Source: Elusimicrobiota bacterium
Lineage (GTDB): Bacteria > Elusimicrobiota > Elusimicrobia > UBA1565
DNA: 62,031 nucleotides
Direction of reading: 5' to 3'
Assembly (NCBI GenBank): GCA_043819795.1
Contig: JBDREN010000100.1
Coordinates: 1 to 62,031 of the forward strand
Made by a program: the position numbers and the translations under genes. Below are positions 4,748 through 26,303 of this stretch, one piece after another (position 1 is the first letter of the stretch; every line of letters starts with the position of its first letter). Below the pieces are notes generated by a model. It made no database searches. It saw only the letters and a list, made by a program, of their open reading frames with translations, and was not told where the DNA came from.

Positions 4748-5707
4748 TCAGGCGGAGCCTGACAAGGTATCGAAGTCCGCCCCCACACGAATCCCCAGGG
4801 ACTCGAGCACGCGTAGCTGGCGGTCGAAGCGGTTCGTCGCCGAGAGAGCGCGCCGATAGCGCCGGAGGGAGGCCGACCATAGACTGGGGTAGGAGAAGCA
4901 GGGGAGAGGATAGTCCGTCCCGAAGAGAAGCCGGTCGAAGACCTCGGGGTGACGGCGAAGCCTGAAGAGCGCGCCGACGCGGCTGGGCAGCGTGAGCGCC
5001 GAGGTGTCCACGAAGAAATTCTTGTAGCGGCTCACAAGATCGAGCATCGTCCCGAAATGCCTCTCGGGGAAGAAGAGGCCGCTGCTGCAGCCGTGCGCCG
5101 CGATCACCGTGACCCCCTGCTCGAGAGCGGGCACGAGCCGGCCGGGGTCGCCGAGCGACTGATCCGCGCCTTTTAGGCTGAACTCGTGGCCCACGTGACT
5201 AAGAAGCGGCATCCCCATCTCCCCCAGCCTCCGGTAGAACGGTTTAAAGCGCGGCTCGGCGGGATCGAAGATCTGCGCGTTCGGAAGAGCCTTCACGAGG
5301 ACGGCGCCCCGTTCGGCGCAGCGCTCAAGCTCCTCGACGGCGTCCCGGCGCGACGGATTGATCGAAACGCCCGGCAGCAGCCTCTGGCGGCCGGCCGCTG
5401 CCTCGAGGACGCAGTCGTTGGCGACCAGAAGGTCGGTGCGCGACTCGTCCAATCGCCCCCCCTCATCATAGGCCCCGTCCATGGCGAGCACCACCGCCCG
5501 GCTCACCGCCTCGGACGCGGCCAGCTCCCGGTCCAACAGCTCGACGTAGCGCCTGTTCGCCGCTTCGGGGTCGTCCAAGGGGATTCCCTCGCGCCAAGCG
5601 ACGAGGCGCGCCAAGGGGCTGCGCAGCATGCGCCTCGACATCAGGCAGCCGTTGGCGGGCGTCGGCAAAGCGAGGAGGTGGACGTGAACGTCGACGAGAC
5701 CCTTCAC
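4748..5707 (-). CDS. Amidohydrolase family (amidohydrolase_2-like) protein
   Basis: DVHVH, LLSHVG, IAAHG and FGTDYP motifs. The GTG start overlaps the aas stop (GTGA). Confidence 0.85.
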   Translation of the reverse strand: MKGLVDVHVHLLALPTPANGCLMSRRMLRSPLARLVAWREGIPLDDPEAANRRYVELLDRELAASEAVSRAVVLAMDGAYDEGGRLDESRTDLLVANDCVLEAAAGRQRLLPGVSINPSRRDAVEELERCAERGAVLVKALPNAQIFDPAEPRFKPFYRRLGEMGMPLLSHVGHEFSLKGADQSLGDPGRLVPALEQGVTVIAAHGCSSGLFFPERHFGTMLDLVSRYKNFFVDTSALTLPSRVGALFRLRRHPEVFDRLLFGTDYPLPCFSYPSLWSASLRRYRRALSATNRFDRQLRVLESLGIRVGADFDTLSGSA

Positions 5708-8700
5708 TCCCGTCCCGCCAGCCCGCGGGCTATCGCCCCGAGCCCGCGCATGTCGAGCTTTCCGGAGCCTAGCAGCGGGAACTCCGGGACCGCGTGGAAG
5801 GCGTCGCGGTCGGGGGTCCAGAGCCGCGGCAGGCCCGAATCCCTGAGCCGCCTGCAGAGCCCGTCGAAGTCGTCGTAGCCCTTGCATAGGACGAGGAGCC
5901 GCTCTCCCCGCTCTTCGTCCGGGACGCCCGTCACGATGAACGTCCGCTCGACGCGTCCGGCCAGCTCGTGCAGCTTCTCTTCGACCGCGATATGGGGGAC
6001 CATCTCGCCGCCTATCTTGCTGAACCGGCCGATGCGGTCGGTGATCGTGACGAAACCGTCCTCGTCAAGAGCGGCGATGTCGCCGGTCACGTAGTAGCCG
6101 TCGCGCAGGACCTCGGCGGTCTCCTCGGGCTCGCCGACGTAGCCCTTCATGACGTTGGGCCCCTTGACGAGCAGCAGCCCCGGCCGCCCGGGCGGGACGG
6201 GCTCCCCCGTTTCCGGGTCCACGACCTTCATGAGCACCCCGGGCAGGGGGTGGCCGATCGATCCGAGCTTCGTGCCCAGCTGGCGCTGCCGGGGCTTTTG
6301 AAAGTCCGGGATATTGACCGCGGCGGCCGGAGACAGCTCGGTGCATCCATAGCCCTCGAGCGGCAGAAGGTCGAACTTCTTCTCGAAGGCGCGGGCCACG
6401 TCCTCGCGCAGCTTCTCGGCGCCGACGACGACGTAGCGCAGGCTCCTGAAGCGCTCCGGCTCGACGCGGCGCAGATAGGAAAGCAGGAAAGTCGGCGTCG
6501 CCAGCAAGAAGGTAGCCCGGTACCGCTCCACAAGCGCCCCGACGACCCGGGCGTCGAGGGGATTGGAATGGTAAACGACGCCCATGCCCGCCAGCAGCGG
6601 GAACCAGAGCGCCCCGGTATGGCCGAACGCGTGGAAGAACGGCAGAACCCCGAGCACGCGGTCTTCCAGGTTCACCTGATAGATCTGCCCCAAGGCCTCG
6701 ATGTTCGCGTGGACGTTCGCGTGGCTGAGCATCGCCCCCTTCGGCGTGCCGGTCGAGCCGCTGGTGAAGATGACGGTCGCCGTGCGATCGAGTAGCCCGC
6801 GGGCCTTGGGGACGAACAACCTGATGACGATCCAAGCGGGCAAAAAAAGCATGGCGGCGGCCGCGATCCCGCCCGCCCCGGCGTCCAGGTCCTCGAGGAA
6901 TACCATGCCTTCCCGCGGCTCCCACCCGATGGCCTCCAGGAACCTCCGAGAAGTCACGATCCCGCTGACCCCGGCCTTCGCGGCGCTCCGAGCGACGAGA
7001 TCCGGGGGGGCGGTATAGTTCAGATTGACGGTGGTCTTCCCCATCATCGCGACGCCGATGTTCGCGAGCGCGGCACCGACCGACGGCGGCAGCAGCAGCC
7101 CGACGGCGTCCCCCGGAGGCAGCGACCGGACGATCGCCCGTCCCGTCGCGCGCGCCCCCGCCATGGCCTGAAGGTAGCTCAGGCGGCGGCCGGTCGAGTC
7201 CGCCATCGCCAGCCGGAAGGGATGCCGTTTGGCCTCGCGCACGAAGGCCTCCGGCAGCGGCGGCCTCTCGGCGAGCCTGTGCCGGAACGCCGCGACGCTC
7301 AGCTCCAGGATCGCCTGCCGGACGTCGTGGGACCTCGTCCCCGGACCCATGGGGCGGCCGAAGCTCACCGTGACCGGATACGGGATGCGCCGCGGACGCT
7401 TGAAGAGGAAGCGCCCCCGCTCGAAGCTGAAGATGCTGCCCCAGACCCGGTCCAGGTGGACCGGCACTATCGGCGCGTCGAGCCCCTTCACGATGCGCTC
7501 GAACCCCTTCTTGAAAGGAAGCATCTGCCCGTGCCGCGTGATCTGGCCCTCCGCGAAGATGCAGACGACCTCCCCTCTCTCCAGCTCCTCGCGGGCCTTC
7601 TGGAACGAGCCCAGGATCGCCTTGGGGCTGTCGTATTGCGATATCGGGATGCAGCCCATGGTGCGCACTAGTTGGTGCAGGACCGGGATATGGTAGTAGT
7701 CCCGGTACATCATGAAGCGGACCAGGCGCCGCGTCGCCCCCGAGATCAGGACGGCGTCGACGTGAGAGACGTGGTTCGCGACCAGCAGCGCCGGCCCCCG
7801 GAGAGGAACGTTCTCCCCTCCTTCGACCTCGATGCGGTAGACGAGGTTCGCGATGGGATAGATCCCCAAACGCAGAAGAAAATCGGGCAGGACCCGCAGC
7901 ATGACGGCGGCCACGACGACCGTCGCCAGCGCGAGGACCAGGAATATCAGGCCCGGGTGAGGGCGCACGAAGCCGCTCAGCAGCCATGCGCAGGATGAAG
8001 CCGCCAGGACCCCGAAGAACGCCGCCGCGTTGCCGGCCCCGATGAACCTGCCGCGCTCGCTCTTGGGACTGCGCTGCTGCGCGAAGGCATGCAGCGGCAC
8101 CACGAAGCAGCCGGCGCTCGCCCCGAACAGGACGAGGTCCGCCAGCGTCCGCCCGCCGGATCCGAAGGAGAACGCGAGGTCGAGCGAAAATGCCACCATG
8201 CCGAGCGCTCCCACCGGCACGAGGCCGAGCTCGACTTGCTCCCGAGAAAGGCGCCCGGCCGCGTAGCTGCCCAGAGCGACGCCCGCCGCGGCCGCGGCCT
8301 GGAGTATCCACAACCGCGCCCGGCCGAGACCCATGAGCGGAACGGCGTAAACGAGCAGGATCGCCTGCAGGAGGGCCATGACGAACCAGAAATAGGCCGA
8401 TCCCGCCAACGCCAGGAGCACGCCGCGATGCCCGCGCGCCGCGCCCAAGCCCGAGCGGACCTGCGCCGCGGCGTTCAGGCGCGGCCTCTCCAGCCCGCCG
8501 GCCGGGGCCACGTCGGGCACGCGAAGGCCGGCGAACACGCCGGCCGCCGCCGCGAGGACGAACAGGCCCGACGCCATGTGGATCCCCCAGGCGTAGGCGT
8601 CGATCAATCCCGCCGCCGCGGCGCCCAGGAGGACCCCGGAGAACGCGGCCGCCTGCATCAGGCCGTTGCCGTGCGAGAGCTTCCTGTCCTCGAGGATGTC

Positions 8701-9066
8701 GGGCAGGATCGCCAGCCGGACAGTGCCGAAGAAGGCGCCCTGAGCGCCCAGGAGGAGCAGAACGCCGAGCAGCAAAGGAACGCTCTTGGCGGCGAAAGCG
8801 GCGAGGGCCGACGCCATCAGCGCGAGCTCCGCGGCCTTGCAGAGCACGATGAGCTTCCGCTTGCCGCAGCGATCGCAAAGCGCGCCGGCGGAGGGAGAGA
8901 GGAGGACCAGAGGGAGGACGAAGAGGCCGCCGGCCAGCGCGGCCAGCCAGCCCCGCTGCTCGGTCGGGAGGCTGCCGGCGGCCCAGAGCGCGAGCAGCGT
9001 CTTGAACGCGTTGACGTTGAACGCGCCCAGGGCCTGCGCCCAAATAAGCCCTCGAAAACCCTTCAC
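5704..9066 (-). CDS. aas: MFS (LplT-like) / acyltransferase / acyl-ACP synthetase fusion (Aas-type)
   Basis: N-terminal MFS helices, PlsC motifs NHVSHVD and FAEG, and AMP-binding motifs FTSGSTGTPKG, EGYGCTE, GD and GSGK. Confidence 0.93.
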   Translation of the reverse strand: MKGFRGLIWAQALGAFNVNAFKTLLALWAAGSLPTEQRGWLAALAGGLFVLPLVLLSPSAGALCDRCGKRKLIVLCKAAELALMASALAAFAAKSVPLLLGVLLLLGAQGAFFGTVRLAILPDILEDRKLSHGNGLMQAAAFSGVLLGAAAAGLIDAYAWGIHMASGLFVLAAAAGVFAGLRVPDVAPAGGLERPRLNAAAQVRSGLGAARGHRGVLLALAGSAYFWFVMALLQAILLVYAVPLMGLGRARLWILQAAAAAGVALGSYAAGRLSREQVELGLVPVGALGMVAFSLDLAFSFGSGGRTLADLVLFGASAGCFVVPLHAFAQQRSPKSERGRFIGAGNAAAFFGVLAASSCAWLLSGFVRPHPGLIFLVLALATVVVAAVMLRVLPDFLLRLGIYPIANLVYRIEVEGGENVPLRGPALLVANHVSHVDAVLISGATRRLVRFMMYRDYYHIPVLHQLVRTMGCIPISQYDSPKAILGSFQKAREELERGEVVCIFAEGQITRHGQMLPFKKGFERIVKGLDAPIVPVHLDRVWGSIFSFERGRFLFKRPRRIPYPVTVSFGRPMGPGTRSHDVRQAILELSVAAFRHRLAERPPLPEAFVREAKRHPFRLAMADSTGRRLSYLQAMAGARATGRAIVRSLPPGDAVGLLLPPSVGAALANIGVAMMGKTTVNLNYTAPPDLVARSAAKAGVSGIVTSRRFLEAIGWEPREGMVFLEDLDAGAGGIAAAAMLFLPAWIVIRLFVPKARGLLDRTATVIFTSGSTGTPKGAMLSHANVHANIEALGQIYQVNLEDRVLGVLPFFHAFGHTGALWFPLLAGMGVVYHSNPLDARVVGALVERYRATFLLATPTFLLSYLRRVEPERFRSLRYVVVGAEKLREDVARAFEKKFDLLPLEGYGCTELSPAAAVNIPDFQKPRQRQLGTKLGSIGHPLPGVLMKVVDPETGEPVPPGRPGLLLVKGPNVMKGYVGEPEETAEVLRDGYYVTGDIAALDEDGFVTITDRIGRFSKIGGEMVPHIAVEEKLHELAGRVERTFIVTGVPDEERGERLLVLCKGYDDFDGLCRRLRDSGLPRLWTPDRDAFHAVPEFPLLGSGKLDMRGLGAIARGLAGRE

Positions 9067-9087: not shown

Positions 9088-9864
9088 TCAGGCTCTGAGG
9101 GCAAGCACGCTCAAGCGATTGTTCATGAGCCCGTAGTCGCCCCGGCGCTCGTGCAGAACGCCCGGATGCGAGACGGACATGGGACGCAGCCTCGCTTCCC
9201 GGAGCATCCGCAGGATCTCCCCTTTCGCGAATACCCGCATTTTGTAGCGGCCGTCGCGCAGCAGGCCCCTCTTGGAGCTCACGACGAGCTCGCGGACCGT
9301 GACGACGCGCCGACCCATCTCGCGTTTCCGGCAGACCACGACGTCGCCCTCCGCCTCATGCCAGGACAACGGCTTAAAGCTCCGGATGAAGCGCTCGCGA
9401 TCCGTGAGGTCCAAGAACAGCTTGCCCCCGCGCTTCAAGAGGCGCCTGGCTTCCTTAAGGATGCGAACGTTGTCCCGGTCGTCCGAGAAATAGCCGAATG
9501 AATTGGTCATCAGGAGCACGACGTCGAAAGCGTCCCCGGGGAGCGGCGTCTTGCGCGCGTCGCCGACGACGAAGCGCACGCCGCGCCCGTTCTTCCTGGA
9601 CAGCTTTCTACCCAAACGGATCAGATACGAGGAATAGTCCAGGACCGTGAGATCCTTGAAGCCGCGCCGGGACATCTCGAAGGCATGCCTCCCTTGACCG
9701 CCGCAGAGGTCCAGGATACTGTCGGACTTCCGGGGCCGCACGACGTCCTTCAGCCAATCGGTCTCCCGGCGCGTGACCTCCGCGTCCAGCACGCTGCGGG
9801 AGTCGGAAAGCAGATAGACGCTATTGAAATAGTCTTTCCACCAGTCCGAACGGACCCGGGTCAT
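9088..9864 (-). CDS. Class I SAM-dependent methyltransferase
   Basis: ILDLCGGQGRH motif I and FDVVLLMTNSFGYF. The ATG at 9864 overlaps the upstream stop (ATGA). Confidence 0.9.
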   Translation of the reverse strand: MTRVRSDWWKDYFNSVYLLSDSRSVLDAEVTRRETDWLKDVVRPRKSDSILDLCGGQGRHAFEMSRRGFKDLTVLDYSSYLIRLGRKLSRKNGRGVRFVVGDARKTPLPGDAFDVVLLMTNSFGYFSDDRDNVRILKEARRLLKRGGKLFLDLTDRERFIRSFKPLSWHEAEGDVVVCRKREMGRRVVTVRELVVSSKRGLLRDGRYKMRVFAKGEILRMLREARLRPMSVSHPGVLHERRGDYGLMNNRLSVLALRA

Positions 9865-11273
9865 CCCCGCGGACCCTCCTTCCCTCCCTCCGGCACGGGA
9901 GCCCCGAACCCGAAGAGACCGTCCGCGGCGATGAGGGCCGGGCCCCCGTTCCAGGGCTGCATCGCGGCGATCTTCATCTCCTCGGAGCTGACCGACAGGA
10001 CATGATCGAGCTTGCCTTCGGAGATCGCCTTCTCCATCCGGACGGCGTCCGTCCAAAGGTTCCGGCTGTACTCCTCCAGGGCGCCGACCTGCGCCCCGGT
10101 GACGACCCGCGGCCTCAACGTCGTCGGGATCGGCCCGAGCAGGTAGACCAGGCCCATCCGGATAGCCTCCTCCTTGATCTCCTTTTCGAGTGCCGCGAGG
10201 CGCTCATAGGGGACGGCGGTGATCGCCCGGTCGATCCGCCGCACCGCCTCCTCCAGGGGGACGTCGGACTTGAGGATCGCCAGGCTCTGGACGCCTCCTC
10301 CAGAGCCGACATTGGTGGGGATCTGCCCGAACCGGGCCACGAACCCCATGAGACCCTTGTCGGTGATAAAGCACCGGAAATCGGTCTGCCAGCGCTTCAG
10401 GACCACCTTCTTGGTCTCATGGTCGATCCAAGGGAAATACTCCGCCCACAGATCGAGCGGAACGAGCGCCTGGACGATGTAGTTCCCCTGTTCCAGCGCC
10501 TTCGCGATATCCTGGTCGCGCGTGGACTCGCGGAGCTTCCCCACGAAGATCCCGTGCCCCGAGTAGCCGTGGGCGGGCTTGAGGACCACCTCTTTCCAGT
10601 GCACGCGCGTCCATTCGACCAGATCGTCGGTCATCGTCCCTTCGGGGTCGGTCACGCGCCGCCTCGCGAACTTCCGCGACCAGGGAGTGCGCTCTCGAGT
10701 GGTCTGGGAGAGGCCGCTCCCGGGGTCGCCTGCGTACTCGAAGACGCCTTTATCCCCTCCCGGCTCCATGCCGCGGGGATTGACGACGAACCCCTTCCGG
10801 ATGGCGTGGAGCAGCGCTTCCAGATTGTGCTTCTTGCCGACCTCCAGGATCGTCGCGTTGTTGAAATCCTGGAAGATCAGGCTCACTTCCTGCCCGTCGA
10901 GGACGACCTTGCCGTCCTTCAGCGCGAGCTGCTGCGGAGCCGCCAGCGCGGCGCGCACTCCCTCGACCCGGTTCAATTTCTCGACGATGTTCTTATTCTC
11001 GATCACGGCGTCCAACGTCTCTTCTTCGGCGACGATCGCGATGAAAAGGCGGCCGGGCGCTCCCACGCGGTCGTTGGCCCGCAGAAGCAGGTCCTTGAAA
11101 CCGGCGACCGGATCGAACCGGGGGTCCTTCATCTCCAGCTCGATGTCGAGCCCGGTGATCCTCACCAACTCATCCCAGGCGCGCCTGCCCAGCTCCTGCG
11201 CCGAGCGGGCGTAGTCCCATCCCCCCGGACTTCCCAGATTCCATTCCGCATGATACCCGAAGAAACTCATCAT
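9861..11273 (-). CDS. Circularly permuted ATP-grasp (glutathione/glutathionylspermidine synthetase-like) putative amide ligase
   Basis: EWNLGSPGG (ExN), VVNP..K, PWSR, VVLKPAHGYSGHGIFVG, YIVQ, DFRCF and TNVGSGGG motifs. Confidence 0.75.
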   Translation of the reverse strand: MMSFFGYHAEWNLGSPGGWDYARSAQELGRRAWDELVRITGLDIELEMKDPRFDPVAGFKDLLLRANDRVGAPGRLFIAIVAEEETLDAVIENKNIVEKLNRVEGVRAALAAPQQLALKDGKVVLDGQEVSLIFQDFNNATILEVGKKHNLEALLHAIRKGFVVNPRGMEPGGDKGVFEYAGDPGSGLSQTTRERTPWSRKFARRRVTDPEGTMTDDLVEWTRVHWKEVVLKPAHGYSGHGIFVGKLRESTRDQDIAKALEQGNYIVQALVPLDLWAEYFPWIDHETKKVVLKRWQTDFRCFITDKGLMGFVARFGQIPTNVGSGGGVQSLAILKSDVPLEEAVRRIDRAITAVPYERLAALEKEIKEEAIRMGLVYLLGPIPTTLRPRVVTGAQVGALEEYSRNLWTDAVRMEKAISEGKLDHVLSVSSEEMKIAAMQPWNGGPALIAADGLFGFGAPVPEGGKEGPRG

Positions 11274-11287
11274 CCAGTCTCCCTTTG

Positions 11288-12955
11288 TTAGGTTGCCCGA
11301 CTGTTCAAGAGGGATCGCATCCTTTGCCCGACACGGGCGAAGGGAATCTGCCCGCCATCAAGAAGAGCCTTATGGAACCGGCGGGCTCCCAGCTTACCCT
11401 GGAATCGGCTGCGCAATCTCAAGATCTCGTAGCCGCCAAGAAAATAACACAATTGATAGCCCCGGGTCAAAGAATAGCGCCGGACCTGTTTCAGGACATC
11501 CTTCCGCCCGAAGCCGAGCTTGGCCAAGAGGCTGCAGGCGCCGCCCACGTCCAACCGGCCGGTTCCGAGCCCGACATCGATCATCGCCCGGTGGGCCCGC
11601 CACAAGGCCCGCTTCAGCAGCAGCAGCCTTTGCCTCGGATCCCGAAGGTAGCCCAAGTCGTCGATCCAGCGTTCGGCGTAGCAGGACCAGCCCTCATAAA
11701 AGAACGGGGACTCGATCTGGCGGCGCACCGGATTGCGGTGGCGCAGACGGAGGGAGTCCAGGGAGTGATGTCCGGGATAGGTCTCGTGCGCGGAGGTGAA
11801 TACGTACTCGTTGTGGACGCGGCGGATGTTTTCCCGTCTCGCGCGCGGACTCCACGACGGGTCCGTCGGGGCGATGTAGAAATAGGCGGGCTCCTCGGGA
11901 TGCCGGCTCAACGGGCTGTTGTAGGAGGCCGCCACGCGAAGCGCGTTCAGATAGCGGGGGGTCTCCGCCACGCTCACCGCGGGGCCCGACAGCAGATGGC
12001 GCATGCCCAGACCGCGGAAGAAAGCCCGCAGGGACGCCGTCTCGTCCCGGTACAGGCGCAGCAGTCCCTTCGGAGATCCGACGCCGGGATCGACTTCAGC
12101 GCTCAGCTCGACCCAACTCCGGGAAGGATCGATCGAACGGGCCGTCTTCTTCAGGCTCTTGAGGACCCGCCGCTCTTCCTCCCTGGCCAGCTCGAAGATC
12201 TCCTTCGGAGTACGACGGCAGCCGTAGCTGCGGCGCAGCAGGCCGTTGAGCACCGACGTCGCGTCGGGACGCCGCGACCCCGGCGGCAGGCTTTTCACGC
12301 GCGACCGGTACTCATCCAAAGCCTCCAGAGCGGCCCGCGCCAGCTTTCCCCAGCCGCGCCGATCGGGATGGCTCATCTCCAGGTGCCGCAAGAGGTCGCG
12401 GCGGAAAAACCCCGAGCACTGCTCGATCATCTCCAGCGTGGCGGCCTTCGCGGCGTCGGGCGCGCTTCGTAGGTTGGCGCCTCCCTGGCGGAGAAGCCTC
12501 GGGATCCCGCTCAGCCTGCGCGCGATCCATTCCTCCCGCTCGCCTCCGCGCGAAGCGCGCTTATAGAGCGTATGATTGACGCCGATCAAGGCGATCCTCA
12601 GATACAGCTGGGGCTCATGGCGGTGGACGGCGTCCGCCTCGAGTTCCGACAGGAGACGATAGGCGCTCCGCGTGAGCATCTCGACGTCGATCTCGTCCTC
12701 GATGTCGTCGCACGGAAGCTCCGAGAGGCGGGCGACGATCCCTTTCACCCGCCGGACATGGCCGGAAACGGCGTCCTGATCGAGATCGTCCAGGCGGTCC
12801 ATATAGCGTACGGCCCTCGAAGCCCGGGGGAAATTGAGGAATTCATCGCTCGCGCACTGGACCGGAAACGACCGGGCCAAGGGGCCGAAATAGGAATCCG
12901 CGCACTCGAGGATCGCGGTCCTGGCCGGAGGACGCTTCATGCGGAGGCCGTCCAT
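11288..12955 (-). CDS. DUF885 family protein (metallopeptidase-like)
   Basis: HETYPGHH, FYEGWSCYAE, RAHRAMIDVGL and YQLCYFLG motifs. Confidence 0.9.
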   Translation of the reverse strand: MDGLRMKRPPARTAILECADSYFGPLARSFPVQCASDEFLNFPRASRAVRYMDRLDDLDQDAVSGHVRRVKGIVARLSELPCDDIEDEIDVEMLTRSAYRLLSELEADAVHRHEPQLYLRIALIGVNHTLYKRASRGGEREEWIARRLSGIPRLLRQGGANLRSAPDAAKAATLEMIEQCSGFFRRDLLRHLEMSHPDRRGWGKLARAALEALDEYRSRVKSLPPGSRRPDATSVLNGLLRRSYGCRRTPKEIFELAREEERRVLKSLKKTARSIDPSRSWVELSAEVDPGVGSPKGLLRLYRDETASLRAFFRGLGMRHLLSGPAVSVAETPRYLNALRVAASYNSPLSRHPEEPAYFYIAPTDPSWSPRARRENIRRVHNEYVFTSAHETYPGHHSLDSLRLRHRNPVRRQIESPFFYEGWSCYAERWIDDLGYLRDPRQRLLLLKRALWRAHRAMIDVGLGTGRLDVGGACSLLAKLGFGRKDVLKQVRRYSLTRGYQLCYFLGGYEILRLRSRFQGKLGARRFHKALLDGGQIPFARVGQRMRSLLNSRAT

Positions 12956-18374: not shown

Positions 18375-20426
18375 ATGGTGAGACGACTCGTTTCCGAATG
18401 GCTCGCCCCCTTCGGTCAGCCCCATTTCCGCAAGCCCATGCAATGGGCTGAGAACCTCCGGCCGAACGCGGAGGGCGAGCTGACCGCCGACCTTCCGCAT
18501 GCCCTGCAGGAGAGCATCCGAAACGCGCAGGCGGCCCTCCTCAGGAAGCAGAACGCCCATGACGGCTACTGGTGCGCGGAGCTGCGGGCCGACACCACGC
18601 TCGAGTCCGACACCATCATGCTGCTCAACTTCCTCGGACAGGGGGACTCCCCCAAAGTCCCGAGGCTGGCCCGGTACATCCTCGGCGAGCAGCTGCAGGA
18701 CGGGGGCTGGCCCATTTACAAGAACGGTCCCGCCGACATCTCGGCCACGGTGAAAGCCTACTGGGCCCTGAAGTTCGCCGGCTATGACGCGGACCATCCC
18801 TCTCTGGCCAAGGCGCGCGCCCGGATACGGGAGCTGGGCGGCATCCACCACGTCAACACCTACTCGAAGTTCTACATGGCGGTCTTCGGCATCTACGACT
18901 GGCGCGGCGTGCCCTCGATCCCGCCCGAGATCATGGTGTTCCCGAACTGGTTCTATTTCAACATCTACGAGATGTCGTCGTGGACGCGGGCCATCGTCGT
19001 CCCCCTATCGATCACCTGGGCCGAGCGACCGAAGGTCAGCTGCCCGCCGCACGCGCGCCTCACCGAGCTCTTCCCGGACTCGCGGCGCCACATCCCCCTC
19101 GGCGAGACCCTGCCGCCGCGCCGGTTCCTCTCGTGGACCAACTTCTTCCTGCTCTGGGACAAGGGACTCAAGGGGATGGAGGGAAGAGGCCCGCACTGGA
19201 TCCGCAAATGGGCGCTGCGGCTCGCGGAGGAATGGATCCTCGAGCGCCTCAAAGGCTCCGACGGGCTGGGCGCCATCTTCCCCGGCATCGTCAACACCAT
19301 CATGGCGATGAAGTCGCTGCGCTACAGCGACAACGACCCGCGCCTGCGCGAGCAGATACGCCTGCTCGAGGACCTCGAGATCGACCGGGGGGAGAAGCTC
19401 GAGATGGAGCCCTGCCACTCGCCGGTGTGGGACACGGCCATCGCGATGATCGGCCTGGCCGAGTCCGGGATGGATCGGCGGCATCCGGCGCTCGTGCGAG
19501 CGGCCGGCTGGCTGCTCGCCAACGAGATCCGGCGTCCCGGCGACTGGCGCATCAAGAATACCGTGGGCCCCTCCGGCGGATGGGCCTTCGAGTTCAACAA
19601 CGCGTTCTATCCGGATATCGACGATACGGCCATGGTCATGCTGGCCCTGCGCCACGTCGATCTCGAGGAAACGCTCGCCCTCCGAAGGGAGAAGGCCTGC
19701 CTGCGCGGCCTGCATTGGCTGCTCTCGATGCAGTCGAACGACGGCGGCTGGGCCGCTTTCGACAAGGACAACACGAAGCTCATCCTCACGAAGATCCCCT
19801 TCGCCGATCACAACGCGATGATCGACCCGCCGACGGTCGATATCACCGGGCGCGTCCTGGAGTTCCTCGGCTACATCGGCTACGACACGTCCTACGCCTG
19901 CGTCGGCTCGGCCGTCGACTTCCTGCGCCGCGAGCAGGAGCCGGACGGCTCCTGGTTCGGCCGGTGGTGCGTGAACTACATCTATGGGACCTGGCAGGTG
20001 CTGCGCGGCCTGCGCGCGATCGGCTACGACATGAGCCTCCCCTTCATCCAAAAGGCGGCCAACTGGCTCGTGTCGGTGCAGCAGCCCGACGGCGGATGGG
20101 GCGAGACGTGCGCCACTTATAACGACCCCGCCTTGAAGGGCCGGGGGCCGACCACGCCCTCGCAGACCGCGTGGGCCGTGATGGGGCTGATGGCGGCCGG
20201 TAGAGCGGACGATCCGGCCGTGGGACTCGGGATCGCGCACCTTATCTCGACCCAGCGGCCGGACGGCACCTGGGACGAAACCGAGTTCACCGGGACCGGG
20301 TTCCCCAAGGTATTCTACCTCGAGTACTCGCTCTATCGCGACAGCTTCCCGCTGACCGCCCTCGGCATGTTCCAGAACGAGCGCCGCAATCTGCGGCAGC
20401 CCCTGGCGCCCCTAATGATCGTGTAG
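18375..20426 (+). CDS. shc: Squalene-hopene cyclase
   Basis: YPDIDDTA (DxDD) and multiple QW motifs (QLQDGGW, QSNDGGW, QEPDGSW, QQPDGGW, QRPDGTW); GTGFPKVFYL. Confidence 0.97.
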   Translation: MVRRLVSEWLAPFGQPHFRKPMQWAENLRPNAEGELTADLPHALQESIRNAQAALLRKQNAHDGYWCAELRADTTLESDTIMLLNFLGQGDSPKVPRLARYILGEQLQDGGWPIYKNGPADISATVKAYWALKFAGYDADHPSLAKARARIRELGGIHHVNTYSKFYMAVFGIYDWRGVPSIPPEIMVFPNWFYFNIYEMSSWTRAIVVPLSITWAERPKVSCPPHARLTELFPDSRRHIPLGETLPPRRFLSWTNFFLLWDKGLKGMEGRGPHWIRKWALRLAEEWILERLKGSDGLGAIFPGIVNTIMAMKSLRYSDNDPRLREQIRLLEDLEIDRGEKLEMEPCHSPVWDTAIAMIGLAESGMDRRHPALVRAAGWLLANEIRRPGDWRIKNTVGPSGGWAFEFNNAFYPDIDDTAMVMLALRHVDLEETLALRREKACLRGLHWLLSMQSNDGGWAAFDKDNTKLILTKIPFADHNAMIDPPTVDITGRVLEFLGYIGYDTSYACVGSAVDFLRREQEPDGSWFGRWCVNYIYGTWQVLRGLRAIGYDMSLPFIQKAANWLVSVQQPDGGWGETCATYNDPALKGRGPTTPSQTAWAVMGLMAAGRADDPAVGLGIAHLISTQRPDGTWDETEFTGTGFPKVFYLEYSLYRDSFPLTALGMFQNERRNLRQPLAPLMIV

Positions 20427-20429
20427 CGT

Positions 20430-21572
20430 ATGGCGGTTCCCTTCCGGATGCAAATGGCCGTTTTCAGGTACATCCTCGCCCAGAAGCTCAAGGGAGTGGA
20501 GAAGTACCCGCTCGTCTTGATGCTCGAGCCGCTGCTCGCCTGCAACCTGCAGTGCGGCGGCTGCGGCAAGGTCCAGTACCCCGCGGACATACTCAAGAAG
20601 CGGCTGAGCCCGGAGCAGTGCTGGAAGGCGGCCGAAGAGTGCGGCGCGCCCATCGTCTCCATCGCGGGCGGCGAGCCGCTGGCCCATGCGCGGATCGACG
20701 AGATCGCGCGCGGGCTGATGGCCCGCGGCAAGTACATCTTCCTCTGCACCAACGCGATCCTGCTCGAGCGCAACCTCCACCGTTTCTCCCCCTCTGGGCA
20801 GCTCGTGTTCAACATACATCTCGACGGGGTGGAGAAGACCCACGACCGCACGGTCTCCCGGAGCGGGGTCCACAAGACCGCCGTCGCGGCGATCCGCAAG
20901 GCGAAGTCCCTGGGCCACAACGTGATGACCAACTCCACGGTCTACCAAGGCGAGAGCTCCGAGGAGTTCCGGCGGTTCTTCGACGAAACCATGTCCCTGG
21001 GCGTCGACGGGATGACGATCTCCCCCGGCTACGCCTACAGGAAAGCCCCCCGACAGGAGCTCTTCCTCGAGCGGGAGCAGACGAGGAGCTGGTTCCGGGA
21101 GACGCTCAAGGATTGGCGCAAGAAGGGATGGGAGTTCAACCACAGCCCGTTCTATCTCGATTTCCTAGAGGGCAAGCGCGATTACGACTGCACGCCTTGG
21201 GGTAATCCGCTGCGCAGCGTCTTCGGCTGGCAGCGGCCCTGCTACCTGATGGCGGACGGAGGCTACGCCGAAACGTACGAGGAATTACTCGAAACAACGC
21301 GATGGGAGACGTACGGCCAGAAGTCCGGCAACGTGAAATGCGCCAACTGCATGGTCCACGTCGGCTACGAGCCCTCGGCCGTGATCGACGCCTTCTCGAG
21401 CCCCGGGAAGTTCCTCGAGTTGGTGCTCGACATCGCGACAATCTCGGGGCCCAAGAAGGCGAAGTCCCGCGCCGGCATTCCGGCGGGTCCGCCCCCCTCG
21501 CCCCATCCCTCCGGGACGACCGTCTCCGCCGGCGATGGCTCGCCGGCCCGCGGCGGCACGGGCCCCTCCTGA
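20430..21572 (+). CDS. hpnH: Hopanoid radical SAM protein (adenosylhopane formation)
   Basis: YPLVLMLEPLLACNLQCGGCGK (CxxxCxxC), CTPWGNP, GWQRPCYL and CANCMVH. Confidence 0.95.
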   Translation: MAVPFRMQMAVFRYILAQKLKGVEKYPLVLMLEPLLACNLQCGGCGKVQYPADILKKRLSPEQCWKAAEECGAPIVSIAGGEPLAHARIDEIARGLMARGKYIFLCTNAILLERNLHRFSPSGQLVFNIHLDGVEKTHDRTVSRSGVHKTAVAAIRKAKSLGHNVMTNSTVYQGESSEEFRRFFDETMSLGVDGMTISPGYAYRKAPRQELFLEREQTRSWFRETLKDWRKKGWEFNHSPFYLDFLEGKRDYDCTPWGNPLRSVFGWQRPCYLMADGGYAETYEELLETTRWETYGQKSGNVKCANCMVHVGYEPSAVIDAFSSPGKFLELVLDIATISGPKKAKSRAGIPAGPPPSPHPSGTTVSAGDGSPARGGTGPS

Positions 21573-21582
21573 ACTCGAAACC

Positions 21583-22623
21583 ATGGACACCGCCTTCCTC
21601 ACCGGGGCGACCGGCTTCATCGGAGCCAACCTGGTCCGGACTCTTCTGGAGAAGGGCCTCAAGGTGCGGGCCCTCGCGCGCCCGGGCGGCAACCGGAAAA
21701 ACATCGAGGGCCTACCCGTCGATATCGTCGAAGGAGACCTCCTTGATCGCCGGACCCTGCTGGACGGATGCCGGGGCGCGCGATACGTCTTCCACGTGGC
21801 GGCCGACTACCGCATCTGGGTGCCGGATCCCGAGGCCATGTACGCCGCCAACGTCGAGGGCACGGTGAACGTCATGAAGGCCGCCGGCGCCGCGGGAGTC
21901 GAGCGCGTGGTCCACTGCTCGAGCGTCGCGGCCGTCAAACCGCTGCCGGGGGGCGCCGCTTCCGAGGACTCCCACTACGCGGGAGCCCGCGAGATCATCG
22001 GCCCATACAAGAAGTCCAAGTGGCTCTCCGAGCGCGCGGCCCTCGAGACGGCCCGCGAGGGCGTGCCGGTCGTCGTCGTGAACCCGGCCGCCCCTATCGG
22101 ACCCCGCGACGTCAAGCCGACACCGACCGGGAAGATCGTCGTCGATTTCCTGAACCGGCGGATGCCCTCATACGTCGACACCGGGCTCAACGTCGTCCAC
22201 GTGCGTGACGTCGCCGAGGGACACTACCTGGCCGCGCTCAAGGGCGCGGTGGGCCAACGCTACATCCTCGGCTGCGAAAACCTCACGCTGAAGCGCATCC
22301 TGGACATCCTCAGCGATGTGACGGGCCTGCCGGCGCCGCGCTTCAAGACCCCGTACGCGCTCGCCTGGGCTTTCGGAGCGCTGGATTCGGCCCGGCTTCG
22401 GCTGTTCGGGGGGACGCCGATCGCGCCTCTTGACGCGGTCCGCATGGCCCGCCACCGGATGTTCTACGATTCCGGCAAAGCCGTCCGGGAGTTGGGCCTG
22501 CCGCAGACGCCGGCGCGCACGGCGCTGCGGGACGCGGCCGACTGGTTCTGCGGCAACGGGTACGCCCCGCTTCACCCTAAAGCAGCGGACCGGGCCGCGG
22601 ACGAGCGCATCGCCGCTCCGTAA
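21583..22623 (+). CDS. hpnA: Hopanoid-associated NAD-dependent epimerase/reductase
   Basis: TGATGFIG, FHVAADYR, YKKSK, GPRDVKPTPTG, and gene context. Confidence 0.92.
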   Translation: MDTAFLTGATGFIGANLVRTLLEKGLKVRALARPGGNRKNIEGLPVDIVEGDLLDRRTLLDGCRGARYVFHVAADYRIWVPDPEAMYAANVEGTVNVMKAAGAAGVERVVHCSSVAAVKPLPGGAASEDSHYAGAREIIGPYKKSKWLSERAALETAREGVPVVVVNPAAPIGPRDVKPTPTGKIVVDFLNRRMPSYVDTGLNVVHVRDVAEGHYLAALKGAVGQRYILGCENLTLKRILDILSDVTGLPAPRFKTPYALAWAFGALDSARLRLFGGTPIAPLDAVRMARHRMFYDSGKAVRELGLPQTPARTALRDAADWFCGNGYAPLHPKAADRAADERIAAP

Positions 22624-22631
22624 AGCTCTTG

Positions 22632-23312
22632 ATGATCGTCATAACAGCCGCGACCCCCTGGGAAGCCCGGCCTCTGGCCAAGGACCTCCGGCTCACGTTC
22701 GCCGGCGGGCAGCCCCGGGTGTACCGGGGCCGGTGCCGGGGCGGGGGCCGGGACATCGCCCTGGTGGAGACGGGCGTCGGGCCCGAGAACACCGTGGCGG
22801 CTCTCAGTGGCCTGGGCGGGCCGGTCGAGACGGTGATCAGCTCGGGCCTGGCGGGCGCGCTTCAGCCCGGCATCCTCTCCGGGGACATCGTCGTGGACCC
22901 GCACGGGGCGCCCCTCCGCTACGTCCAAGACGCCCGGCGCGTGGCCGCGGACGCGGGCCTGACGCTCCACTTGGGGGTCCTTGTCTCCGCGGACCGAGTG
23001 ATCGGCTCTCCCGCCGCCAAGCGGACCCTGGGCGCCGAGAAGCGGGCGGTGGCCGTGGACATGGAAAGCTCCTGCTCCCGCGCCTGGGCCGAGGACGTCG
23101 GCGCGGAGTTCATCGTGGTGCGGGGGGTCCTGGACGCATTGGGCCAGCGCCTGCCCGAGGGCGTCCCGGAGAGCGACTCGACGGCGGACCTGGCCCGATA
23201 CGCCCTCGCGCGCTGGAGGGACCTGCCGCTTCTGCTGCGCCTGGCATGGCTCAAGCGCCGCAGCATGGGGCGGCTGGGTCGATTCCTGACGCGTTTCTTG
23301 GAGGCCGCATAG
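22632..23312 (+). CDS. hpnG: Hopanoid-associated nucleoside phosphorylase-like protein
   Basis: TGVG, SSGLAGAL and AVDMES purine-phosphorylase motifs within the hpn cluster. Confidence 0.75.
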   Translation: MIVITAATPWEARPLAKDLRLTFAGGQPRVYRGRCRGGGRDIALVETGVGPENTVAALSGLGGPVETVISSGLAGALQPGILSGDIVVDPHGAPLRYVQDARRVAADAGLTLHLGVLVSADRVIGSPAAKRTLGAEKRAVAVDMESSCSRAWAEDVGAEFIVVRGVLDALGQRLPEGVPESDSTADLARYALARWRDLPLLLRLAWLKRRSMGRLGRFLTRFLEAA

Positions 23313-23315
23313 AGT

Positions 23316-24269
23316 ATGAGGATGAAGAAGACGCTGCAGCGCTACATGAAGACCCGCGCCGCCTGGGTGGACCGGGAGATCGAACGCCTGATCGCCCACA
23401 ACGCCCCCAGCGCCATCCCCTTCCTTCAGCCGATGCCGGTCACCATGCACAACGCCATGCGCTACTCGCTTTTGGCCGGCGGCAAGCGGCTGCGCCCCGT
23501 GCTCGTCATGGCCGCGGCGGAATGCTGCGGACTCACCGCACGCCGCGTGGTCAAGACGGCCTGCGCGCTCGAGATGATCCATACCTATTCGCTCATACAC
23601 GACGACTTGCCGGCCATGGACGACGACGATCTCCGCCGCGGCCACCCGACCAGCCACAGGGTCTTCGGCGAGGCCATCGCGATCCTGGCCGGCGACGGGC
23701 TGCTGACCCTCGCTTTCGAGACGGCCGCCGAGAACGCCCTGAGCCTCCGGCTCTCCGGGCCGGCCTCGGCGGAGCTCATCCGCGTCATCGCGGCCGGCGC
23801 CGGCGTGCGCGGCATGGTCGGCGGGCAGGCAGCCGACCTCGGCGCCGAAGGCTATCCCCGGCGAGCCCTCCGCGGCGTCGGGCGCGCGAGGGCCCGAAAG
23901 CTCCTTGAGTACATCCACACCCACAAGACCGCGGCGCTCATCACGGCCAGCCTCGAGGCGGGCGCCATCCTGGCCGGGGCGAAGACGGCCAAGCGGCGGG
24001 CTCTGCGCGATTACGGCCTGGCGATCGGCCTGGCGTTCCAGATCGCCGACGATCTTCTCGACCGCGTCGGCGACAAAAGGAAGCTCGGCAAGCGCGGCTC
24101 GGACCTCGACAACGAGAAGCTCACCTACCCGCGGCTCTACGGGATGGAGGGCTCGAGCCAGCTCGCCCAGAAGCTGATCGCCCGCGCTCATCGCGACCTC
24201 ACGCGCTTCGGCCGCCGGGCGACGCCGCTCCACGAGCTGGCCGACTACATCATCACGCGCGACCGCTGA
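23316..24269 (+). CDS. ispA: Farnesyl/geranylgeranyl diphosphate synthase
   Basis: GGKRLRP, HDDLPAMDDDDLRRG, GQAAD and FQIADD motifs. Confidence 0.93.
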   Translation: MRMKKTLQRYMKTRAAWVDREIERLIAHNAPSAIPFLQPMPVTMHNAMRYSLLAGGKRLRPVLVMAAAECCGLTARRVVKTACALEMIHTYSLIHDDLPAMDDDDLRRGHPTSHRVFGEAIAILAGDGLLTLAFETAAENALSLRLSGPASAELIRVIAAGAGVRGMVGGQAADLGAEGYPRRALRGVGRARARKLLEYIHTHKTAALITASLEAGAILAGAKTAKRRALRDYGLAIGLAFQIADDLLDRVGDKRKLGKRGSDLDNEKLTYPRLYGMEGSSQLAQKLIARAHRDLTRFGRRATPLHELADYIITRDR

Positions 24270-24292
24270 GCCCTTATCGTCGCGGACCCTTA

Positions 24293-24301
24293 TGCTATAA
24301 T
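24293..24301 (+). promoter_or_regulatory. Extended -10 promoter of dxs
   Basis: TGCTATAAT, with a GGAGG RBS before ATG 24360. Confidence 0.6.
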
Positions 24302-24359
24302 CGGCGCTTATTCCCGGGGGCCGCGAGAGCGGCACGGCCGGGACGGAGGAATACCTCAG

Positions 24360-26303
24360 ATGGAGTTACTGCGGACGATCGACAGCCCCGAAGACCTGCG
24401 GGCCCTGCCCGAGGACAAACTGCAGGACACGGCCCGGGAGGTTCGCCAGTGGATACTGGACTGCGTCTCCAAAACGGGCGGGCACCTCGCCCCCAGCCTG
24501 GGCGCGACGGAGATCACTACCGCGCTCCACTACGTCTTCGATACGCCGCGCGACAGACTCGTATGGGACACCGGCCATCAGGCCTACGCGCACAAGGTCT
24601 TGACGGGCCGCCGTGAGCAGCTCAAGCGGATACGGCAGTTCGGCGGGATCTCGGGCTTCCCGAAGCGCAGCGAGTCGGAGTACGACACCTTCGGAGCCGG
24701 CCACGCCTCGACGGCCATATCCGCCTCGCTGGGCATGGCCGTGGCCCGAGACCTCAAGGGCGAGAAATCGAAAGTCGTCGCGGTCGTCTCCGACGGCTGC
24801 ATCACCGGAGGCGAATCCTACGAGGGCCTGCAGAACGCGGGACAGCTCCAGACGGATCTCATCGTCGTCCTCAACGACAACCAGATGTTCATCTCCCAGA
24901 AGGTCGGCGCGATGAGCGCCTTCCTGACGCGGCTCTTGACGCTGGGCGCCGTCCGCAACGCCCAGAAGGAGGTCGAGAAGTTCCTGGCCCGCTTCAAGTT
25001 CTGGGGCGCGGTCATCCTCCGCCTCGCCAAGCGCGCCAAGGTCCTGCTCTTCCCCGGGATGCTCTTCGAGGAGATGGGCTTCGCTTATTTCGGCCCCATC
25101 GACGGGCACGACGTCCTCCAGCTCGTGAACGTCTTCCGGCACATCAAGCACCTCAAGGGCCCGGTCCTCATCCACTGCGTGACGAAGAAAGGAAAGGGCT
25201 ACTCGATCGCCGAGAAAGATCCGACCCGGTGGCACGGCACGGGCAAGTTCGAGCTCGAGACCGGAAAGAAGATGAAATCCGCCAAGCCGTTGCCGCCGAC
25301 CTACACCGAGACCTTCTCGAAGGCGCTGGTCAAGCTGGGCGAGGAGGACCCGCGGATCGTCGCGATCACGGCCGCGATGCCCGAAGGGACCGGCACCGAC
25401 GGCTTCCGCGAGCGCTTCCCGAAGCGATTCTTCGACGTGGGCCTCGCCGAGCAGCACGCGGTCACCTTCGCCGGAGGCCTGGCCTGCGAAGGCTACCGCC
25501 CGGTCGCCGCCATCTACTCGACCTTCCTGCAGAGAGGCTTCGACCAGATCGAGAACGATATCTGCCTGCAAAAGCTGCCGGTCGTCTTCGCGCTCGACCG
25601 CGGCGGGCTCGTCGGCGGCGACGGGCCGACCCACCACGGGGCCTTCGACTACTCGTACCTGCGCATGATCCCGCACATGACGATCATGGCTCCGGCCGAC
25701 GAGAACGAGCTGCAGCACATGCTGAAGACCGCTCTCGCGCTCAACGCCCCGGCCGCGCTCCGCTACCCGCGCGGCGAGGGCGTCGGCGTGCCGATCGACC
25801 CCGTGATGGAGACCCTTCCGATCGGAAAGGGCCTGCGCGTGCGCGACGGGCACGACGTCACGATCGCGGCCATCGGCAACCGCGTTCACCCGGCGCTCGA
25901 GGCCGCTCGGATACTGGATACCTGGGGGATCTCCGCGGGCGTGCTCAACATGCGCTTCGTCAAGCCGATGGACCGGGACCTCCTTCTCCAGGCCATCGAG
26001 AAGACCCCGCTGCTCGTCACGGTCGAGGACAACGTCATCGCCGGAGGCTTCGGCTCGGCCGTTCTGGAGACCATCAACCAGGCCAACGCCCTCATCGGCC
26101 GCTCCCTGGCCTCGAAGGGGGCGAAGAGGCCGGTCTCGGTGCTGCGCCTCGGTATCGCGGACAGGTTCGTGACGCACGGCAAGCAGGAAGAGCTCTACGA
26201 TATGCTCGGGATCGACGCGAAGGGCATCGCCAAGCGGACGGCCCAGTGGCTCGGCGTCGGCGCGAAGCCTTCCGTCGAGGCGCGGGACAAGCGCCGAAAG
26301 TGA
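24360..26303 (+). CDS. dxs: 1-deoxy-D-xylulose-5-phosphate synthase
   Basis: GGHLAPSLG, WDTGHQAY, GPIDGH, AEQHAVT and DGPTHHG. Confidence 0.97.
   Translation: MELLRTIDSPEDLRALPEDKLQDTAREVRQWILDCVSKTGGHLAPSLGATEITTALHYVFDTPRDRLVWDTGHQAYAHKVLTGRREQLKRIRQFGGISGFPKRSESEYDTFGAGHASTAISASLGMAVARDLKGEKSKVVAVVSDGCITGGESYEGLQNAGQLQTDLIVVLNDNQMFISQKVGAMSAFLTRLLTLGAVRNAQKEVEKFLARFKFWGAVILRLAKRAKVLLFPGMLFEEMGFAYFGPIDGHDVLQLVNVFRHIKHLKGPVLIHCVTKKGKGYSIAEKDPTRWHGTGKFELETGKKMKSAKPLPPTYTETFSKALVKLGEEDPRIVAITAAMPEGTGTDGFRERFPKRFFDVGLAEQHAVTFAGGLACEGYRPVAAIYSTFLQRGFDQIENDICLQKLPVVFALDRGGLVGGDGPTHHGAFDYSYLRMIPHMTIMAPADENELQHMLKTALALNAPAALRYPRGEGVGVPIDPVMETLPIGKGLRVRDGHDVTIAAIGNRVHPALEAARILDTWGISAGVLNMRFVKPMDRDLLLQAIEKTPLLVTVEDNVIAGGFGSAVLETINQANALIGRSLASKGAKRPVSVLRLGIADRFVTHGKQEELYDMLGIDAKGIAKRTAQWLGVGAKPSVEARDKRRK

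Follow-up and report, generated by a model that had tools for sequence, protein, structure and literature searches.

An ATP-grasp ligase family with an apparently undescribed chain order, encoded in a conserved three-gene cassette

Two orders of the polypeptide chain are known among ATP-grasp ligases, the classical one and that of the glutathione-synthetase type (CP, for circularly permuted). In the classical order the core is followed by the strand bearing the metal-binding Asp and then by the ExN strand, whereas in the CP order helices and the Asp strand come first, followed by the ExN strand and the core. The DNA considered here, a 62,031-nucleotide stretch from an Elusimicrobiota bacterium (UBA1565; assembly GCA_043819795.1, contig JBDREN010000100.1, forward strand), which we call the window, encodes a ligase in which the order is ExN strand, core, helices and Asp strand. 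Its gene (9861..11273, minus strand; 470 residues from an ATG start) was delimited by the open reading frame, profile searches and a structural model. Because profile matches occur in swapped order, and because the model aligns as described below to both CP-type and classical structures, this arrangement is unlike either known order, and we regard the circular permutation as very nearly certain.

The protein consists of two segments. Residues 9-334 (10272..11249, minus strand; located with hhalign and HMMER) comprise the ExN strand, the substrate-binding domain, the lid and the G-loop, while residues 338-458 (9900..10262, minus strand; hhalign, HMMER and a shuffle test) comprise the helical LRPR segment and the Asp strand. 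The motif HAEWNLGSPGG, with E10 and N12, occupies residues 8-18, TNVGSGGG residues 320-327 and LIAADGLF residues 447-454; LRPR (386-389) lies within GLVYLLGPIPTTLRPRVVT (residues 374-392). R314 and the TNVGSGGG loop, the usual end of CP-order proteins, correspond to 10293..10334 (minus strand; motif, hhalign and conservation). A first-pass annotation, made from the sequence alone, had placed ExN at about residue 10 and had noted some 130 residues beyond the terminal NVxxGG motif; the former position is correct, and 143 residues follow the G-loop motif. A wrong start or a lost N-terminus was ruled out. In 110 of the 120 best homologues the ExN Glu stands at residue 10 or 11, and in none does it lie beyond residue 23; because of this constancy its early position is a trait of the family. 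GGGAG is found 6-10 nt upstream of the ligase ATG, the stop codon of the preceding gene lies 14 nt upstream, and the ligase TGA overlaps the ATG of the following gene (ATGA). Pfam gave only a sub-threshold match to CP_ATPgrasp_2 (PF14403; 16.4 bits against a cut-off of 32), an NCBIfam scan gave nothing close to a cut-off, none of 11 diverse re-permuted members passed a Pfam cut-off, and neither the protein nor its close alignment gave a significant match when PDB sequences were searched. It is probably the chain order that lets the family escape annotation, leaving its members "hypothetical".

Evidence for the permutation came from A3, an alignment of 25 CP-order relatives (430-490 residues) obtained by a cluster-representative search, which shows the usual CP order of LRP, RxD, ExN, lid and NVxxGG. 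The last two thirds of these proteins match only ligase residues up to about 335. In hhalign, with single-template E-values, ligase residues 9-334 fall on positions 141-465 of A3 (probability 100, E 4.4e-42) and residues 338-458 on positions 1-131 (probability 97.5, E 7.2e-12), A449 being paired with R122 and D451 with D124 (R122-L123-D124 of P0203). A HMMER search of the window's genome with the A3 profile also gave the two matches in swapped order, positions 10275-11246 to profile 142-464 and 9960-10253 to profile 4-107, and the swapped double match was found in two of five other genomes at E 1e-4. Conversely, a profile of ligase residues 336-462 had its best match inside the first 119 residues in 23 of the 25 A3 proteins, and in 19 of the 25 the score surpassed the highest obtained with 500 shuffled sequences; the swap thus stands well above chance. 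Since the A3 proteins had been chosen on the other segment, their selection has no bearing on this test.

The same picture was obtained by structure. An AlphaFold2 model of the ligase, built from 141 sequences (predicted local distance difference test, pLDDT, 91.9; predicted template modelling score, pTM, 0.91), has strands at residues 5-12 and 448-455; for the Atlas model, CP-type neighbours cover only residues 1-338. When the AlphaFold2 model was aligned with VIA, for which the ranges given are end points only, residues 1-334/335 aligned to CP-order structures: 3KAL (model 1-334; Z 16.6, root-mean-square deviation 3.6, 304 aligned residues), 2HGS (Z 15.5), YgiC (Z 14.7, chain 107-386) and 3N6X (model 2-335 against chain 152-472; Z 14.3, root-mean-square deviation 3.2, 292 aligned). 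Residues 75-458, on the other hand, aligned to classical structures starting at their first residue, as in RimK 5ZCT (Z 13.1, chain 1-254), GshB 1GSA (Z 12.6, model 75-455 against chain 1-277) and Ddl (Z 11.7, up to residue 264), and these alignments end at the Asp strand (RimK 254, GshB 277). All 50 VIA matches listed (Z 11.1-16.6) are either ATP-grasp entries or tubulin complexes; chain F of the latter is presumably tubulin tyrosine ligase. According to an excerpt of bioRxiv 2024.03.12.584671, Asp273 of Escherichia coli GshB binds Mg together with Glu281 and Asn283, and the end point of the 1GSA alignment would place D451 on this residue if the last strand is ungapped. Residues 336-460 folded alone gave a pTM of 0.45 and no useful Foldseek or VIA match (best Z 4.0); this isolated model is uninformative, because the segment likely needs the core.

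The first-pass annotation had proposed to compare the two segments separately, and in the profile comparison both fall on one CP-order template in swapped order. Its suggestion that the helical LRP segment has moved to the C-terminus agrees with the hhalign, HMMER and 336-462 profile results, and the profile matches together with the structural alignment uphold its further proposals that the chain was opened between the Asp and ExN strands and that A449 and D451 sit at the RxD motif.

The residues expected to act in catalysis are almost invariant. In 281 distinct aligned rows, near-duplicates included, E10 and N12 are each kept in 277, D451 and D298 in 276, R300 in 279, and K175, K232 and R314 each in 276-278. 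E10-W11-N12 (11238..11246, minus strand; conservation, with the strand 5-12 of the model) would supply Mg ligands, and D451 of A449-A450-D451, at the RxD position (9921..9929, minus strand; hhalign, conservation and the strand 448-455), is the predicted third ligand. D298-F299-R300 (10374..10382, minus strand) forms a D-x-R motif recognized by conservation and by its counterparts in 3N6X and GshB. The catalytic residues of trypanothione synthetase (TryS) are given in an excerpt of PMC2427367 as Arg328, Asp330, Glu344, Asn346, Lys513, Lys548 and Arg613, and their counterparts by motif are, in this order, A449, D451, E10, N12, K175, K232 and R314, so that only the first Arg is unmatched. Indeed, Arg occurs at position 449 in none of the 281 rows; AAD is itself a minority form, A-S-D being commoner (Ser at 450 in 239 rows).

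The change of RxD to AAD had been taken at first to suggest a changed substrate, which the evidence does not support. In the solved CP protein 3N6X, G-V-D stands where RxD would be and VDLR corresponds to D298-x-R300, and in E. coli GshB the equivalent Asp208 and Arg210 lie near the gamma-phosphate site, according to the same excerpt of bioRxiv 2024.03.12.584671. R300, on a neighbouring strand, likely stands in for the RxD arginine, as judged from these sequence comparisons. Since the Arg is likely supplied by that strand, its loss is by itself no sign of a changed substrate; in view of 3N6X, GshB and the conservation of R300, we dropped the argument that the loss suffices to indicate inactivity or another substrate. 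A second position is more telling. R267, the S-loop Arg of human glutathione synthetase, binds the gamma-glutamyl carboxylate (excerpts of PMC2845819 and PMC6297838). In hhalign, ligase Q135 aligns to the Arg of a YRD motif, which in turn aligns to human R267 (counted from the printed alignment), and in the family Leu or Met occupies this position in 253 of the 281 rows and Arg in two. Because the gamma-glutamyl-binding Arg is replaced in this way, a substrate other than a gamma-glutamyl one is likely. We consider it highly probable that the ligase is catalytically active.

The family is large. Among 8000 scored candidates 1808 match it at E 0.001 or better, and the best 120 of these, 457-479 residues long and 49-55% identical to the query (itself excluded), cover the whole query, the named ones being "hypothetical". 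Of 490 pattern matches in the genome collection, 474 encode a relative. Counts of loci given below refer to the 80 genome loci that were kept, mostly from Desulfobacterota, Omnitrophota and Planctomycetota, and to 77 metagenome loci. In the window's own phylum, eight of 201 genomes match the profile of the relatives and the swapped pattern was found in the window's genome only, which suggests a patchy spread. A metagenome scan aimed at the divergent P0135 clade yielded loci whose identity to P0135 was only 29-36%; we took these as mainstream members. Two paralogous ligase copies share a cassette in seven genome loci (L002, L003, L009, L010, L022, L041 and L045) and in seven metagenome loci. 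Such pairs may correspond to two ligation steps; they indicate that genes of this family duplicate locally, without showing a permutation intermediate.

The ligase gene lies between two others. Upstream is a gene for a zinc-hydrolase-like DUF885 protein of 555 residues (11288..12955, minus strand; Pfam PF05960, E 1.5e-57), with HETYPGHH at 390-397 and E421; among 84 aligned sequences the motif residues HE..PGHH and EGW are at least 95% conserved. Downstream is a gene for an S-adenosylmethionine-dependent methyltransferase of 258 residues (9088..9864, minus strand; Pfam Methyltransf_25, E 3.1e-18), of which the best PDB match is 9RI2 (NmbA; E 1.6e-15, residues 7-222). NmbA is described in part of PMC12719100 as N-methylating the cysteine of bacillithiol. 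Of the 80 genome loci, 65 have DUF885 and 64 have the methyltransferase, nearly always in the order and on the strand seen in the window; in the metagenome loci the numbers are 47 and 63 of 77. Flanks of at least 1.5 kb upstream and 1 kb downstream were available for 54 genome and 36 metagenome loci, of which 47 and 26, respectively, contain both partners.

How could these three proteins act together? The reading we prefer, to which we assign a probability of roughly 60%, is that an active, re-permuted amide ligase, together with the methyltransferase and the zinc-hydrolase-like partner, makes and turns over an N-methylated amide of small size. In a single event in a CP-order ancestor the old termini would have been joined (now the linker 335-338) and the chain opened at the surface loop that separates the Asp and ExN strands. 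D451, E10 and N12, coming from both ends of the chain, would coordinate two Mg ions, K175 and K232 would bind the ATP phosphates, and R300 and R314 would align the carboxylate and stabilize an acyl-phosphate. The carboxylate would thus be phosphorylated and the acyl-phosphate attacked by an amine to yield an amide. A gamma-glutamyl peptide is an improbable acyl donor; a CP-type ligase that takes a non-amino-acid acid as donor, Cp1B, is described in part of PMC12568646. The NmbA-like enzyme could methylate the amino group of the substrate or of the product, and DUF885 could trim or recycle the amide by hydrolysis. In its most specific form, the proposal concerns a widespread family of active ligases with a third chain order, in which the Mg site is built from the first and last strands and the catalytic Arg has moved to a neighbouring strand. 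Together with DUF885 and the NmbA-like methyltransferase, these ligases would constitute a pathway of three genes by which anaerobic sediment bacteria handle a metabolite that is an N-methylated amide or thiol; we put this somewhat short of even odds.

Several observations weigh against this proposal. One or both partners are missing within the flank in seven of the 54 genome and ten of the 36 metagenome loci with sufficient flanks, and the 80 genome loci come from related genomes and are not independent. Mean-field covariation (281 rows, effective depth 138) ranked the best pair between strands 5-12 and 448-455 only 621st of 103,740, and both the closeness of D451 to E10 and the location of R300 are inferred. 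Activity of the ligase and the nature of its product are predictions, and the divergent re-permuted members P0123, P0125, P0132 and P0134 have decayed ExN, lysine or D-x-R motifs, so far as their sequences tell possibly as inactive partners. Finally, the midpoint root of our careful tree, discussed below, falls on the branch to the re-permuted family, so that the direction of change is likely at most.

Among the alternatives the one that survives best, unlikely as we find it, is that the ligase tags proteins, adding amino acids to a terminus or side chain that DUF885 would remove, while the methyltransferase caps the amine. The recurrent pairing of ligase and peptidase would fit this, as would the assignment by Pfam of DUF885 to the zinc-dependent Peptidase_MA clan (PMC12572635, in part) and the presence of the cypemycin N-terminal methyltransferase among the PDB matches of the cassette methyltransferase. 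CP-order relatives also stand beside TldD/PmbA-type genes. These relatives are common in the phylum of G201, where 107 of 301 genomes match, and 17 of the 30 loci retrieved there (L096-L125) have a common divergently oriented neighbour, which was recognized as TldD/PmbA in the two members scanned; a second subgroup of these loci lies between succinyl-CoA synthetase-like genes (by sequence), an amidohydrolase gene and a pyruvoyl arginine decarboxylase gene. Tagging of proteins is opposed by the lack of a fourth partner, since, once clusters that represent or resemble alternative frames of the cassette genes are set aside, no further conserved gene of at least 90 residues is shared by more than 10 of the 80 genome loci. 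Moreover, the nearest characterized relatives (glutathione synthetase, GspS, YgiC/YjfC, Cp1B and NmbA) use small molecules or short peptides.

It is considerably less probable that the cassette encodes an ordinary enzyme of thiol metabolism, acting on gamma-glutamyl-cysteine or at an N-methyl-bacillithiol step, with nothing unusual except its chain order. The top structural matches of the ligase are homoglutathione and glutathione synthetases, and NmbA is the best match of the methyltransferase. The window's genome encodes GCS2 (PF04107), as would suit this reading; in a search confined to this GshA family, two of five cassette genomes have it. The position of human R267, almost never Arg in the family, argues against an ordinary thiol substrate, and BshC was found in none of the five cassette genomes, in a search with a positive control in 3 of 14 and with incomplete genomes, the window's own being 90% complete. 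Given this result, the methyltransferase substrate is probably not bacillithiol. Elsewhere, fusions of about 860 residues that join GCS2 to a CP-order ATP-grasp domain are encoded in L094:8282-10858 (minus strand), L095:4671-7244 (plus strand) and L086 (genomes G019, G131 and G081; Pfam was run on L094), and from their sequence they are candidate single-chain glutathione-type synthetases. GshF has a second domain that differs from theirs.

We hold equally little belief in the idea that the order seen here is a surviving intermediate on the way from the classical to the CP order, in which the ExN strand moved to the front first and the Asp segment followed later. In its favour, residues 75-458 of the model run colinearly with RimK, LysX, GshB and Ddl, and the GshB-type D-x-R motif is kept; this motif, however, is also present in the CP-order protein 3N6X. 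The midpoint root would fit such an intermediate. The careful tree was built from the shared core (61 rows, 344 columns), its bootstrap not settled; a quick tree was also made. The careful tree has three sides: the 20 re-permuted proteins (100/99), one CP subgroup (97/90), and the remaining CP proteins together with glutathionylspermidine-synthetase-like and COG2308-like rows (91/95). If rooted on the latter two kinds of rows, the re-permuted family is derived from the CP order, and with these outgroup rows it groups with one CP subgroup (91/95, again with unsettled bootstrap), which argues against an intermediate. So do an identity of about 30% to one CP-order set, compared with 9-16% to classical structures, and the long helical LRP segment common to the ligase and the CP proteins. 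Change from the CP order to the re-permuted one is therefore likely, though no more than that, because of the midpoint root on the family's own branch. Still less credible is an inactive or merely ligand-binding fold whose active site was broken by the opened hairpin and the lost Arg, since, in spite of the absent Arg at 449 and a few divergent members with decayed motifs, each of the other residues predicted to take part in catalysis persists in no fewer than 276 of 281 rows and R300 is a likely substitute.

The likely derivation of the re-permuted order from the CP order brings attention to the loop in which the chain would have been cut. In the A3 relatives the corresponding hairpin loop is variable. 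One CP-order relative (L120:1498-3162, minus strand, genome G393) carries an in-frame insertion of about 78 residues in the RxD/ExN hairpin; it lies exactly where the re-permuted family was opened and resembles translated repeat DNA. Duplicated or fused intermediates, that is forms of 824-2350 residues, were absent from the 8000 candidates, which is weak evidence, and a frame of 865 residues in L002 that had been considered as a long form is an artefact of an N gap. No clear split form was found in the 23 of 301 genomes with matches in the phylum of G202; of the 28 rows there, 18 are complete, and the partial ones seem to reflect contig edges, a frameshift or CP-order relatives.

Other genes of the window seem to be local company. 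After the cassette and on its strand (4748-9066, minus strand) follow an Aas-like MFS/acyltransferase/AMP-binding fusion and an amidohydrolase; the window neighbours Aas, amidohydrolase and DUF4015 were beside the ligase in none of the 80 genome loci. Further away (18375-26303, plus strand) lies what we take to be a hopanoid cluster, with putative genes, judged by their motifs, for squalene-hopene cyclase, HpnH-like radical SAM, HpnA-like, phosphorylase-like and prenyl transferase proteins and 1-deoxy-D-xylulose 5-phosphate synthase. In a genome of the same family as the window's (G144), L092:7521-13287 encodes three divergent CP-order ATP-grasp domains and an aminotransferase, possibly a biosynthetic cluster.

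We found no description of the re-permuted family, its chain order or the cassette in the titles and abstract openings searched, a scope that leaves room for a mention in Iyer et al. 2009, Polekhina et al. 1999 or an ATP-grasp review. The first of these is reportedly the main survey of amidoligases and the second is said to be the original paper on the permutation. The excerpts of PMC2034487 and PMC2213659 do not mention a permuted chain order of this kind. The family is thus, apparently, a real and undescribed variant of a known enzyme class within a conserved, unexplained cassette. The surprise is limited, because circular permutation is common as an event and the cut fell in a variable surface loop. 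Nevertheless, a third ATP-grasp order, cut inside the metal-binding hairpin and with close un-permuted relatives in databases, makes it possible to compare a natural pair, and so to study how permutations come about and whether the catalytic Arg shifted along with this one. The three-gene cassette is a compact lead to a metabolite in Desulfobacterota, Omnitrophota and Planctomycetota and, if our proposal is true, would give DUF885 a biochemical context, of which the titles and abstract openings of the DUF885 literature searched contained none.

Compared with known systems, the ligase takes features from both established groups. Its best structural matches (Z 12.3-16.6) are CP-order amide ligases, namely eukaryotic glutathione and homoglutathione synthetases, GspS/TryS, YgiC/YjfC and Cp1B, and it has motif counterparts of their Mg ligands, their two lysines and their second arginine; it differs from them in chain order, in lacking the RxD Arg and the gamma-glutamyl-binding Arg, and in sequence (11-16% identity). 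The A3 proteins are its closest sequence relatives outside the family, at about 26-35% identity over the matched core, yet they retain the CP order and an intact RxD, and neither DUF885 nor the methyltransferase occurs within the 1.5-kb flanks of such relatives in 30 loci; in the searches made, none of these proteins appeared to have been characterized. With 3N6X (Mfla_0391, COG2308-type, CP_ATPgrasp_1/2) it shares the fold over residues 2-335, the absence of an Arg before the metal Asp, the D-x-R motif and an N-x-x-x-GG loop, whereas the helical segment and Asp strand are first in 3N6X and last in the ligase; the DUF885 and methyltransferase partners and the sub-threshold Pfam score further set it apart from the COG2308 type. 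The classical enzymes GshB, RimK, LysX/ArgX and Ddl align colinearly with ligase residues 75-458 as far as the metal-Asp strand (Z 11-13), and Asp208/Arg210 of GshB is the counterpart of its D-x-R motif, but they carry the ExN strand after the Asp strand near the C-terminus, where the ligase has it at residues 5-12 and possesses, in addition, the long helical segment of the CP type.

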